DNA of 64,000 nucleotides, taken from assembly GCA_049840735.1 (NCBI GenBank), contig JASGJN010000026.1, positions 96,001 to 160,000 on the forward strand, given 5' to 3'. The position numbers and the translations under genes are program-made. Below, piece by piece: positions 39,468 to 45,400 of this stretch. The DNA comes from Anaeromyxobacter sp. Its GTDB lineage: Bacteria; Myxococcota; Myxococcia; Myxococcales; Anaeromyxobacteraceae. Positions within the stretch are counted from its first letter, which is position 1; every line of letters starts with the position of its first letter. The notes beneath the pieces are model-generated. The model worked only from the letters and a program-made list of their open reading frames with translations, was not told the DNA's origin and ran no database searches.

Positions 39468-42400
39468 GCGTCCGCCCCTGCCGTGGCCGCGCGGCGGAGC
39501 TCCTCGGCCGAGGCCGGCGCAGGCACCTCGACCGTCCGGTAGCCGGAGAGCTCCAGGAACACGTGCCCTTCGGCGTCCACCACATCGGCGTCGAACCCCT
39601 CGCCCGGCAGCGGACGGACCTCGGCGAAGCAGGGGCCGCTGATGCCGCCAGGAGGCGCGTGGAGCCGGAGCGAGCCCACCGCCGCCGGCAGCCCGAACGC
39701 GCCGCGCCGGACGAGGTCGTGGATCCCGGCGGTCTGGAAGCAGAGCTCCAGGAGCCGCGGGAAGGTCCGCTCCAGCGCGTCCGGTGCGGCCAGGTTGGGC
39801 CCCAGGCCAGCGCGGAGGACGCCCACCGCCCCGCCCGCCTCGACCCGGACGCCTTCCAGCACCTGGTAGGCGGGGCCGTGGAAGTAGACGCGGTAGACGG
39901 CCTCGCGCCCCACCGTCAGGGCCGGCGGCGGCTGGAACGCGACGGCGCGCGGGGGCAGGGCGGCGCGCTCGACCAGCACGCAGCCGCGGAAGTGGAGCCG
40001 CTCCTGCGCGGGCAGCCCGGGCTTGGGCTGCAGGCGGGAGGAGAGCTGCACGTCCACCAGGAGCCCGTCACCCGCGCCCGGCCGCCCCACGGCGACGAGG
40101 TGCAGGGTGAGCGGCCGCAGACGGTGGAACTTGACCGGCTGCAGGAACTCCAGATCCCGCAGGCCGGTGACCACGTGCCCGGGGCAGAGCACGGTGGCCA
40201 CCTGGGCGAAGATCTCGGCGCCCATCACCCCGGGCAGCACCGGGACCCCGTCGATTTGGTGGTCCCGCAGGAAGGGCTGCTCGTTCGGATTCGAGGCGGG
40301 TCTCGACCAGCAGCCCCCGCCCCAGCGGCGCACCGACAAGGTGGCCCACCAGCGGGAAGCGGGCGGCGTGCTCCCGGAGCCAGGCCTGCGCCCGGTCCAG
40401 GTCGAGCCCGCCGGTGGGATCCCACTCCGCTGCCAGCGTGCCCAGCCGGCCGCCCACCACGATCTCGTCGGCGGCGCCGGACAGGAGCTCGCGGCGCACG
40501 GTCGGGATGCCGACCTCCGGATCGAGCATGTCGATGCCGGCCGCCTCCATGATCTTCGGGATCGAGCCGCGGGTGGCCATCCCGATCCCTCCCCAGGCCG
40601 TCCAGTCGATGGCCACGGCGCGGGTGCCGGGCCGCGCCCGCCGCAGCCAGCGCGACATGGCGCAGAGGCAGGCGTTGGCGGCGGCGTAGTCGGTCTGCCC
40701 GGCGTTGCCGAACCGGCCGGCCACGGAGCTGAAGACCACCGTGGCGCCGAGCGGCAGGTCGCGGGCCGCCTCCAGGAGCGCGTAGAACCCTTCGGCCTTG
40801 ATGTCGAAGACCCGGGCCCACTCCTCGTCCGGCTTGTCCGGCAGCGCGCGGCTGATCTCGATGCCGCCGGCGTGCAGCAGCGCGTCGATGCGGCCGCTCC
40901 GGGTCCGGACGGCCTCGATGGCCGCGCGGACCGAGGCGTCGTCGAGGAGGTTCGCGACGTGCCAGTGGGCGGTGCCACCGGCCGCCTCGACGCCCTCGAC
41001 CGCGCGCAGCGCCGCCTCCTGGCGCTCGACCGCCAGGAGGTGCCGGTCGATCGCCACCGGGGTCGGCTTGTCGCCCCGGGCGCGGGCCTCGGCGATGAGC
41101 GCCTCCTTGAGCCGCTCCCGGCCCTCGCGGAGGAGTCGCACGTGCGGGTCGTCCGCCGGCGGCGGCGCCACCAGGTCGAGCAGGTGGAACGTCCCGCCGG
41201 TGGCGGCGGCCAGGTCGGCCACGATGGCGCTGGTGATGCCGCCGGCCGCGCCGGTCACGACGAAGACGCTCTCCTTGCCCAGCGCGAGCGCGGGGCTGGG
41301 CGCCACCGGGCGCTCCTCAAGCGCGACGGACCAGCGCTGGCCGCCGTGCCGGCCCACCTCGACCACGCCCGGATCGCCCAGCGCCTCCGCCAGCAGCAGC
41401 TCGGCCGCGGCGGCCCCATCCGCCTCGGCGCCCAGGTCCACCACCTTCACCAGCGCCTCGGGGCGCTCACGCTTGAACGCCTTGACGAAGCCCTGGACCG
41501 CGCCTCCCAGCGGCGCGTCGGTGCCCTCGTCGCACAGGCCGAACAGGCCGCCGAGCCGCGTGCCGGCCACCAGGAAGGTGCCGGCCGGCGAGACCGCCTC
41601 GTACAGGGCGCGCATGGTGACGGCGAGGTTCTTGACGGTCACGCGCGTGCGATCGCGGAAGCCCTCCAGCGAGAGCGCGTCCAGCCGCGGCTCGGGGTCG
41701 AGCGCCGGCAGCCAGAACACACCGTGGACGGGCCCCTCGGACAGCCAGCCCTGCACGGTGGCGACCAGCTCGGCCGCCGGGCGCCGCGCGTCCAGCACCA
41801 GGGCGATGACGCCGCGGGAGGCCAGCAGCGCGGGCAGCGGGCTCTCCGCGGCGCCGACGCCGATGACGACGCGGGCGCCGGTGCCGAGCTCGACGCCGGT
41901 GGCCTTGCAGAGCGCGAGCGGCGGGCGCAGCACCGGGGTGGCCACCCGGCGCGGGACCTGGTCGGCGTTCGCGAGCGGGCGGGCGCTGGCCCTGGCCGGC
42001 CGTGGCGGGGCGGTCGCGGTCGCGGGCGCAGCGGCGGCCGGAGCAGCGGGCGCGGCCACCGGGGCGTCCAGCGCGGGGGTCGCGGCCTGGTCGGTCCGGT
42101 GCTGGTACACGAACCCGATGACGTGGCGGAGCGTGGGGAAGTCGCGCAGCCTCAGGTTCTCCACGCGCGGGATGGACCAGGCCGCGCGGACGGCGGCGAA
42201 GGTCTCGGCCTGCTTCACGGTGTCCACGCCCAGGTCGGCCTCGAGATCGAGGTCGAGGTCGAGCAGATCGGGCGGGTACCCGGTCTTCTCCGAGACGATC
42301 TCGATCACGCGCGAGCGGACCGGGTCCTCCTCGTCGGGCCCGGACTCGGTGTGGGCCGCGTGGTGGGCCGTCAGGGCGTCCAGGACCGGATCCGCGGGCG

Positions 42401-45400
42401 TGGAGGCCGAGACGGCAAGCGGGATCGCCACGGGGACGGGCGCGGGCGCGGATGCGGCCCCTGGCGCAGGGGCCGCCGCCAGGTCGGGCCGGTGCTCGCG
42501 GACGAACCCGATCACGTGGCGGAGCGTGGGGAAGTCGCGCAGGCGCAGGTTCTCCACGCGCGGGATCGACCAGGCCTCGCGCACGGCGGCGAAGGTCTCG
42601 GCCTGCTTCACGGTGTCCACGCCCAGGTCGGCCTCGAGATCGAGATCGAGGTCGAGGAGGTCGGACGGGTAGCCGGTCCGCGCGGACACGATGGCGATCA
42701 CCTGCTCGGCGATGGGATCGGTGGCCGGCGCCGGCGGCGGCGCGGGGAGCGGCGCCACGACCGGAGCCGAAGCAGAAGCTGGCGCCGGAGCGAGGACCGG
42801 AGCTGGAGCCGAAGCCGGGGTCGGAGCCGGAGCCGGGACCGGGGCCGGAGCAGGAGCAGGAACTGCTGCTGGCGCCAGCGCGATGGCCGGGGCCCGGGCG
42901 AGCTCGGGAGCCCGCGCGGCGCTCGACGCCACCCGCTCGCCCTGAGCCTGTCGAAGGGCGGGCGGCGGCGCCGGGGCCCGCCGGACCGGGCCGGTGCCCC
43001 AGGCCCAGGTGGCGGGGGCGGGGGAGCGGCGCGGGGCGCCGGTGGAGACCACCCGCAGCGTGCGCTGCACGACCTCCGTCTCGGCCTGGTCGATGCCGGT
43101 GACGGCGTCGAGCCAGCTGCGGTAGACGTCCGGCCTGTCCATCCGCTCGGTGCCGCCCGGGATGCGCCGCGTGAGGGTGAGCGCGATCTGCGAGCCGAAG
43201 CCGGCGGCCAGGTGCAGCGCGAAGTTGACCGGGTAGCGGCCCCCGCGGCTCAGGTTGAGCGGCCCGAGGTCGGGGTCCTCCTCGCGGTGGTTCGGGACCG
43301 GCGGCACGATCCCGTGCTCGAGGATCTTGACCGCGACCACGTCCTCGACGCCGACGCCCATGGCGTGGCCGGTGAACCCCTTGGTGTTGGAGATGACGAT
43401 GTCCCCGGCGGCGCCGCCGAACACCTTGCGCAGCGCGGCCACCTCGGCCGACGCGCTCCCGCCGCGGGCCGGGGTGAAGGTCTCGTGCGACATGAAGACC
43501 AGCTCGCCGGCGAGCGTGCGCCGGTCGAGCCCGAAGCGGCGCTCGGCCGAGCGGACCAGGCTCTCCACCACGCCGGCGACGTGGTCCACGTCGAGCCGGG
43601 TGGCGTGGAAGGCGCTGTTGCGGGTCTCGCTGGAGAGCAGCTCGGCCAGGCCGCGCATCCCGCGCTCCTCCACGGCGTCCTGGCTCTCGATCACCAGCGC
43701 GGCGGCGCCCATGCCGATGAGGGTGCCGTGGCGGCGGCGGTCGAAGGGGAGGGCCGCCTCCTCGACCTTGTCGTCGGTGGCGGCCGCGCCGGTGGCGAGG
43801 AACCCGGCGCCCACCCACTCCAGCAGGTTGTCGCTGGTGGCCGCGTCGGCGGAGACCACCACCACGCGCCGGCAGCGGCCGGTGCGGATCCAGTCCTCGG
43901 CCATGGCCACCGCCTGGGCGGTGCTGGCGCAGGCGGCGTTGCAGAGGGCGCTGGGGCCGCGGGCGCCGATGTACTCGGCCAGCTGGCTGTGGCCCATGGG
44001 CAGGACCCGCAGCAGGAAGCGCCGGTCGAAGGCGTAGGGCTCGCGGCGGAGCTCGTCCTCGACCTCGCCCAGCTGGCGCTGGATCTCGCCGAGCGCGTCC
44101 GGGTCGCGGGTGCGGGCCCGCAGCGTCTCCAGCCCCTCGCGCCGGGCGAGGCGCGCCTCGTAGCGGTGGTAGCGGGCCGTCTCCTCGGCGAACCGGTCCA
44201 TGCCCGGGAAGGCGGAGCCGAAGATCACGCCGGTCTCGTCCCGCATCGCCTCCGGCAGCAGCCAGCGATCGGGCAGGAACGTGCCGCGCGAGGTGCGGCG
44301 CCAGGCCTGCACCAGCGGGATGCCCGCCTCGCGGAGCGCGTCGATCCCGGCGGCCATGGCGAGCTGCGTGGTGATGTCGAGCGCCTCGACCAGCTTGGCG
44401 GGGACGCCGTACTCGGCCGCGAGGTCGAACGGGCCGGGGCGGCCGCCCAGCTTCAGGACGTCGTCGGCGTCCTCGATGGTCTCGAAGCGGCCGTCCCCCT
44501 CGGCCGTCTTGACCACCCGGGTCACCTTCTTGCGGGCCATCAGCTCCCGGAAGCGCACCGGCAGCAGGTCGATGAGCTGCTCGCCCCGCAGGATCCGGTC
44601 CACGTTCCGTGGATCCATGACCGGCTTCTCCGGCCCGGGGAGGCCCAGGCCGCAGCCGGTGATCACCACCGAGCCGGCCGGCGGCGCGTTGCGGTCGGGC
44701 GCGGCCGACGTCGCGGGGTGGGACGGCATCCCGGCCAGGCTCCGGGCGAGCACCTGCGCCAGCTCCTCGATCCTCGTGTTGGACACGGCTTCGCCCTCCG
44801 CCTCGCCGTCCACCGGGACGGCCGTTTGCTGTTCGATCCGTGCAGCGACATCCACCCCCGGCGCCGGCTCGGCGGGCAGGCCGTGACCGGCGGCCCACAG
44901 CCCGCACAGCGCCTGGTTGAAGGCGGCCAGCTCCCCGAGCTTGGGGTGGTTCGTGAAGAGCGACACCAGCCCCTCGCGCCCGCCCAGCACGTCGTCCACG
45001 AAGCCCTTCAGCGCCTTCTTCGGCCCCACCTCGACGAACGTCCGCACGCCCTCGCGCCAGAGCGTCTCCAGGCCGCGCGCCCACTGGACCGGGGAGGCGA
45101 TCTGCTGCACCAGCAGCGCGCGGATCTCCTCCCGCGTGGCCGGGTAGGGCTCGCCGGTGACGTTGGCGATCACCGGCAGCCGCGGCGGCGCGATCCGCAG
45201 CCGGTCCAGCACGGCCCCCAGCGCCTCGGCCGCGGGGGCGACGATGCGGGTGTGGAAGGCGTGGCTGACCGGGAGCCGGACCACCTCCAGCCCCGCCGCC
45301 TGCAGCGCCGCCATGGCGCGCTGCACGGCCGCGGTCTCGCCGCCGATCACGGCCTGGCGCGTGCTGTTGAGGTTCGCCGTCACCACGTAGCCCTCGACGC

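Follow-up and report, generated by a model that had tools for sequence, protein, structure and literature searches.

The 64,000-nucleotide stretch analysed here (Anaeromyxobacter sp., assembly GCA_049840735.1, contig JASGJN010000026.1, positions 96,001 to 160,000; hereafter the window, with a G+C content of 74%) carries on its minus strand a gene for a large multidomain synthase, followed directly by a gene for a phosphopantetheinyl transferase (PPTase). Both acyl carrier protein (ACP) domains of the synthase have threonine where the serine that accepts phosphopantetheine is expected. The whole synthase region extends over 47675-39464. Its first frame (47675-40284), delineated with Pfam and recovered in a single frame by tblastn with the orthologue G010, lies in an open reading frame (ORF) of 2535 amino acids (P0001, 47675..40068), which encodes a first ketosynthase (KS1, 47663-46278, residues 5-466), an acyltransferase (AT, 45863-45012, residues 605-888), a second ketosynthase-like region with Cys-His-His (KS', about 44678-42876, residues about 1000-1600, from Pfam and the translation), the two ACPs and a ketoreductase (KR, 41264-40590, residues 2138-2362). 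The dehydratase (DH, 40318-39464; Pfam PKS_DH_N and PS-DH) follows in a shifted frame (ORF 40978..39464, stop at 39466-39464). The domain layout and the downstream PPTase mark the gene as a Type R secondary lipid synthase, a PfaA-like iterative enzyme with the order KS-AT-KS'-ACP-ACP-KR-DH; its best NCBIfam match, PfaA (TIGR02813), scores 879.7 bits, below the cut-off of 1010.1, and the best stretch of that match covers KS-AT alone. In the translations we found the Cys/His/His of KS1, GHSLG of the AT, the Cys/His/His of the second KS, the KR motifs and HxxxGxxxxP of the DH, residues that we take to be the catalytic motifs of these domains. A first-pass annotation of this DNA had described all other catalytic motifs of the synthase as intact; the motifs are indeed there, but the synthase is not one open frame, and its DH is read from the shifted one.

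The PPTase is of the Sfp type. Its N-terminal and catalytic part (39467-38904) contains KRR, SISH, GIDLG and WCGKEAALK, and aligns with residues 1-203 of the G010 PPTase by tblastn; the C-terminal part (WPLAPAGGAWHAF...GAWRVFPGFVAALA) lies in another frame at 38865-38650, with its stop at 38652-38650. The ACPS-family ORF (39467..38610) scores 48 bits with Pfam ACPS (PF01648) against a cut-off of 25, and its ATG overlaps the synthase stop (ATGA). The translational coupling proposed earlier therefore stands as regards the enzyme and the overlap, with the corrections that the stop belongs to the DH frame and that the PPTase itself changes frame between 38904 and 38865.

The two ACP-like domains are 77-residue repeats, identical at 66 of 77 positions. 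Domain 1 (42719-42489, residues 1653-1729) has Thr1688, encoded by ACC at 42614-42612, and domain 2 (42326-42096, residues 1784-1860) has Thr1819, encoded by ACC at 42221-42219. The serine of the carrier motif is treated as universal, and serves as a test for functional ACPs and peptidyl carrier proteins (PCPs) in genome mining, PROSITE and Pfam; both window domains fail the (D/E)LGxDS pattern, with Thr at the attachment position. When the domains were aligned with solved structures (phmmer against the Protein Data Bank, over 60-70 residues), the Thr fell on the cofactor-bearing Ser of the PigH ACPs (5y08: DLGVDSIALAE, DLGIDSVSVAS) and of the Streptomyces coelicolor fatty acid synthase ACP (2koo, DLDVDSLSMVE). 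Thus the initial observation of two near-identical ACPs with Thr at the phosphopantetheine site is borne out. The resemblance to ordinary carriers is modest at the profile level: PF00550 (PP-binding) passes weakly on the synthase, with 23.3 bits against a cut-off of 20.8, and the window ACPs miss E 0.001 in a genome-wide PF00550 search.

The substitution is not peculiar to this genome. Searching a word index with the ACP region scored 7999 proteins, 4665 of them at E ≤ 0.001, and we analysed the best 120 together with the query. These 120 are proteins of about 3000 amino acids from Acidobacteria, Chloroflexi, Bacteroidota, Gemmatimonadota and Actinobacteria, and in the 121 proteins, each with 2-8 tandem ACP copies, all 605 motif instances had Thr at the site. 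Across 603 motif-anchored units Thr was present in 100%, within a near-invariant stretch that includes [VI]DTVKQAE..R...IPR...L.LRDYPTL. In a collection with one genome per species we found at least 619 matching stretches, of which at least 593 were confirmed. The ORFs of 85 related loci (80 loci of this species scan and five further ones) gave 313 ACP hits: 307 with Thr, six that end before the site, and none with Ser. The possibility, entertained in the first-pass annotation, that homologues generally carry Ser therefore does not hold, since Thr was found in every unit that reaches the site.

All four Thr codons are in use in the related loci (ACG 148, ACC 126, ACA 17, ACT 14), and in 42 of 84 loci more than one of them occurs among the repeats of the same locus. 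Judged from these codons, selection at the site is on the amino acid. The earlier argument against a read error is thereby strengthened: the family-wide presence of Thr and its four codons rule out both a read error and chance. We also considered whether a different conserved Ser might be the true attachment site, and rejected this, as across the 603 units Ser is conserved nowhere in the domain. Conserved Thr residues also occur within KTGYP and YPTL (the latter presumably structural), at some distance from where helix II begins.

Because searches with the ACP lean on the motif itself, we repeated the survey with the KS' domain alone as query. Against 1.84 billion cluster representatives, phmmer returned 8655 proteins at E ≤ 0.001 (655 at 1e-30). 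Among the best 150 of the 8655, 126 had ACP hits, comprising 353 units: 331 with Thr, 13 with Ser, five with gaps, and one each with D, Q, G and P, the last four in low-scoring, decayed repeats. A bias of the word-indexed search towards DTVKQ can thus be dismissed as the source of the Thr excess. Decayed repeats were also seen as single copies among intact Thr repeats in P0159, P0161, P0181 and P0170 (for example DLGVKDADLQGL and DLGLDGTTKNQI), which indicates that individual copies of a tandem array can be lost.

In this sample, Ser is the sole well-scoring substitute for Thr. It occupies all ACP units of P0172, two units of P0253 (ELGVDSVKQAEI), and one unit each of P0226 and P0267; P0237 reads Ser, Thr, Ser across its three repeats, and P0170 has four Thr units and one degenerate Ser unit. 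We placed these proteins in an unrooted FastTree phylogeny of 103 KS' domains, from which 47 of the 150 proteins, including P0253, were excluded for partial KS' coverage. P0172, P0226 and P0267 are each nested in otherwise Thr-bearing clades (supports 1.0, 1.0 and 0.91), while the placement of P0237 is weak (0.37). The tree suggests that the site has switched between Thr and Ser several times, the pattern one would expect if function resides in the hydroxyl.

The PPTase travels with the synthase. It adjoins the synthase in all four relatives examined from the same genus or order. The 80 related loci were screened by jackhmmer from the G010 PPTase; 11 were too short, and 64 of the 69 informative ones have a PPTase of one clade no more than 10 kb downstream of the synthase, next to it in 35 and at a greater distance in 29 (two of these on the other strand). 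In the more distant cases that we examined, a multidomain acetyl-CoA carboxylase fills the gap. The check proposed in the first-pass annotation, conservation of the motif and its co-occurrence with one PPTase clade, thus came out in favour of both. In 39 members of the clade GxD, W..KE..LK, KRR and SISH are kept, so that the CoA-binding and catalytic motifs are intact, and the Asp, the W..KE Glu and the Lys, which we take from Sfp to be catalytic, are invariant; the window enzyme has GIGID and WCGKEAALK. Against solved structures, the first half of the clade profile matches AcpS, and Sfp (4mrt, residues 12-172) is matched along both halves. The second acidic position of the DxE motif is Glu in at least 90% of the 39 members. 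In the window PPTase this site lies in GIGIDLGRIEPR (39040-39075).

A model of the complex was built from the PPTase and the ACP of G010 (alignments of 39 and 10 rows, respectively), with CoA and Mg. It scored 0.80 (runs 0.81, 0.78 and 0.80), and the best of three controls scored 0.00; for comparison, 116 of 157 solved complexes and 2 of 215 mismatched pairs attained that mark. Contacts agree by at least 93% between runs, with a partner pLDDT of at least 87. Docking in the model is via ACP helix II, ACP Thr36 contacts PPTase Glu189, the invariant Glu of W..KE, and ACP residue 37 contacts PPTase residues 147, 185 and 189. The Thr domain is therefore modelled like an ordinary PPTase substrate, a result that bears on placement, with transfer presumed.

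These observations lead us to favour, with fair confidence, the reading that the co-encoded PPTase attaches phosphopantetheine to this Thr, and that the holo domains function like any other tandem ACPs. In DLG[VI]DTVKQAE, a strictly conserved Thr would replace the Ser of (D/E)LGxDS across a very large clade. The Sfp-type PPTase would move 4'-phosphopantetheine from CoA to the Thr hydroxyl, with the conserved Glu of W..KE as the putative base, and the holo-Thr-ACPs would then carry malonyl and acyl thioesters just as Ser-ACPs do. The Thr is probably modified and the PPTase probably specialised for it; housekeeping PPTases would probably fail on a Thr acceptor, which would explain why the cluster brings its own.

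Several points weigh against this reading. AcpS reportedly leaves the S36T mutant of Escherichia coli ACP unmodified. At the second acidic position of DxE the window PPTase has Gly (DLG) and its G010 orthologue Ala (DLA). In five of the 69 informative loci no PPTase was found within the sequence covered by the jackhmmer screen, and in the assembly at hand synthase and PPTase each contain a frame break. The pass of the structural model may reflect likeness or memory, since Sfp-PCP and AcpS-ACP complexes have been solved. Activity is presumed for this exact family, no product having been assigned to Type R synthases. Finally, the full-text literature gave no report of Thr-linked phosphopantetheine, though subscription journals or supplements may hold one. 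In that literature 'DTVKQ' retrieved irrelevant papers only, a bioRxiv paper on the DSL motif reported no Thr mutant, and a JACS Au 2026 paper concerned Ser ACPs only; a paper on the swf polyketide synthase (PKS) proved unrelated.

If the Thr domains were never primed, they would be structural or docking pseudo-carriers, the chain would be handled as CoA thioesters or on a Ser-ACP acting in trans, and the PPTase would serve another protein. Such an arrangement would sit well with Thr not being a known PPTase acceptor, a point on which the literature search gave nothing to the contrary, with the weak PP-binding score and the failure of the window ACPs to reach E 0.001 genome-wide, and with the decayed repeats of some homologues. 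It is nevertheless unlikely: tandem sets of 2-8 copies that share an invariant 11-residue motif are what working ACP arrays look like; where Thr is replaced in a well-scoring unit the residue is Ser, in proteins that nest among Thr relatives; nearly all informative loci hold the PPTase as well; no free ACP gene occurs in the clusters examined; and the model sets the Thr on the catalytic Glu. The first-pass annotation had left the choice between priming of Thr by a specialised PPTase and carriers in an enzyme working on CoA esters or a trans ACP; the comparative evidence favours the former. Still less probable, in our estimate, is that the hydroxyl is used in some other way, by attachment of another prosthetic group, by direct O-ester acylation, or through priming by a different enzyme. 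A conserved hydroxyl and the interchange of Ser and Thr say only that the hydroxyl matters, and the VKQAE that follows the site is unlike the DSL type seen in ordinary carriers. Yet the co-located enzyme keeps the Sfp-type CoA-binding and catalytic residues, the clusters examined hold no other conserved candidate transferase (their neighbours being acyl-CoA dehydrogenase and acetyl-CoA carboxylase), and a short O-ester would be unable to reach six active sites.

A different kind of doubt concerns the window copy alone, which might be a decaying pseudogene cluster in which real frameshifts split the synthase before the DH and truncate the PPTase, leaving two ACPs. The breaks themselves are plain: between KR and DH a one-base shift falls at 40318-40284, where tblastn with G010 follows one frame to 40284 and another from 40318, and the PPTase is broken at 38904-38865 in the comparison with the G010 PPTase. 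The window copy also has two ACPs, as against 3-8 in most relatives, its PPTase is without the DxE Glu, and the synthase gene is present in only 4 of 24 same-genus genomes. Frame breaks, however, recur in this assembly, which seems prone to single-base indels: the essential rpoB runs over two frames (profile positions 3-215 and 227-1238, contig C17:180337-184456), a further rpoB fragment, located where a contig ends (C23:27-385), is likewise split, and so is a second synthase on contig C20. We therefore read both window breaks as most likely assembly indels. In the orthologues G010, G034, G027 and G039 everything including the DH lies in a single open frame of 2654-2928 amino acids; in the window the coding signal persists across both breaks, with a third-position G+C content of 0.95 in the synthase and with 60-76% identity to G010 on either side; and two-ACP members occur in other genomes as well. 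A silent or decaying cluster, which the first-pass annotation had named as a possible undoing of its proposal, is accordingly an unlikely description of this copy, given that the essential rpoB is also divided between frames in this assembly.

The preferred reading, Thr as the acceptor of the co-encoded PPTase, can be set against the other carriers of the same genome, which holds five ACPS-family genes and 15 PF00550 hits. Thirteen of these hits have Ser (AcpP, nonribosomal peptide synthetase and PKS carriers), and the other two have Thr (ELGIDTVKQV and ELGIDTVRQV). Both belong to the second synthase on contig C20 (C20:767790-779980, L019:3792-15980), which is PfaA-like, has the order KS-AT-ACP-ACP...KS-KR-DH with its own PPTase at the end, and is split over three frames. 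By name, its relatives are found in Anaeromyxobacter dehalogenans and Stigmatella aurantiaca, where AIS92916.1 (strain Sg a15) has five Thr-type ACPs. AIS92916.1 may belong to the dawenol polyene cluster; if it does, a Thr-ACP synthase would be productive in vivo. A broader proposal, which we advance tentatively and hold to be possible rather than probable, is that Thr-linked 4'-phosphopantetheine is native to the whole Type R clade (at least 593 species genomes) and to this second myxobacterial family, and requires co-evolved PPTases because ordinary ones refuse Thr. Carrier and PPTase would then form a natural orthogonal pair, which would keep housekeeping priming, and perhaps de-priming, away from these synthases.

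An acyl-CoA dehydrogenase-family gene (49445-47763, minus strand, 561 amino acids from stop to stop; Pfam Acyl-CoA_dh_N/M/1) lies immediately upstream of the synthase gene. An acyl-CoA dehydrogenase of about 560 amino acids occupies the same position in all four relatives examined (L074:2076-3773, L028:1800-3446, L039:2539-4230 and L104:1081-3189), indicating that it is a conserved cluster member. Since the synthase is without an enoyl reductase domain, this flavoenzyme may act on the carrier-bound chain. In L074, a gene for the alpha subunit of electron transfer flavoprotein precedes the dehydrogenase. An acetyl-CoA carboxylase, either multidomain (about 1850-1900 amino acids) or split, stands between or after the synthase and PPTase genes in many related loci, among them L074:13164-18854, L104:12715-18270 and L028:13673-16718, and explains the class of more distant PPTases. 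Elsewhere in the window, also on the minus strand, are an acetate kinase fragment adjoining a phosphotransacetylase gene (51381-52076, profile positions 173-332 of 392), which is a frame break or a remnant, the full-length acetate kinase being at C22:524293-525435; an ORF for ribosomal protein L9 (6199-6582), whose match to the C-terminal domain profile covers positions 2-53 of 86 only and may reflect another assembly indel; and a fragment of an IS110/IS116/IS902-family transposase (22489-23103) with the Transposase_20 domain alone.

The importance of the Thr site extends to how these enzymes are recognised. Public annotation labels the synthases mostly as 'SDR family NAD(P)-dependent oxidoreductase' or 'acyltransferase domain-containing protein', names that fit the weak PP-binding score of Thr-type carriers. 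If the Thr is modified, this would be the first natural Thr-linked phosphopantetheine, in a clade of thousands of megasynthases; it would account for the PPTase that travels with these clusters and for the 'SDR family oxidoreductase' rather than PKS labels in databases. The carrier and its PPTase would also offer an orthogonal pair for labelling and pathway engineering. For heterologous expression of Type R clusters, it follows that Sfp or AcpS may fail to prime the carriers.

It is instructive to compare the window system with those already known. The solved Sfp-PCP (4mrt) and AcpS-ACP (1f80) pairs resemble it in the two lobes of the PPTase, in GxD and W..KE..K, and in the CoA-binding motifs, docking in our case being predicted; they differ in that their acceptor is Ser rather than a putative Thr, and in the second acidic residue of DxE, which is Gly in the window PPTase. 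The second Thr-type family likewise has tandem ACPs of the Thr type, a KS-AT resembling PfaA and, in this genome, a PPTase of its own that closes the locus, but it has another domain order, QVAVL in helix II, and ACPs only 37-40% identical to those of the window. Canonical PfaA (TIGR02813) has, like the window synthase, an N-terminal KS-AT, tandem ACPs, a KR and a PS-DH; in contrast, the window synthase has an inserted second KS and the Thr motif, in place of the Ser type seen as ELGIDSIKRV in P0334 and P0353. Nor are pfaB, pfaC and pfaD present at the window synthase, unlike in polyunsaturated fatty acid synthases.

The closest system is Type R itself. The main text of Shulse & Allen (2011, PLoS One 6:e20146, PMC3098273) describes it as a single pfaA homologue with KS, malonyl-CoA acyltransferase (MAT), a second KS ('CLF', chain length factor), tandem ACPs and KR, followed by a PPTase, and with product unknown. 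Type R is reported there from Acidobacteria and Chloroflexi, and from Koribacter, Solibacter, Elusimicrobium and Roseiflexus, with an acetyl-CoA carboxylase sometimes preceding the PPTase; in that main text the words 'threonine' and 'serine' have no occurrences. Our homologues bear the names Korobacteraceae, Bryobacteraceae, Oscillochloris, Chloroploca and Kouleothrix, and are likened to the 2011 members by name. The order KS-MAT-KS-tandem ACP-KR, the downstream PPTase, the phyla and the acetyl-CoA carboxylase of related loci are all shared with the window family. The window cluster differs in the intact Cys of its 'CLF', in having a DH and an upstream acyl-CoA dehydrogenase, and in having two ACPs against 3-6. 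The gene family is thus a known one, and its Thr acceptor site is apparently an undescribed variant.

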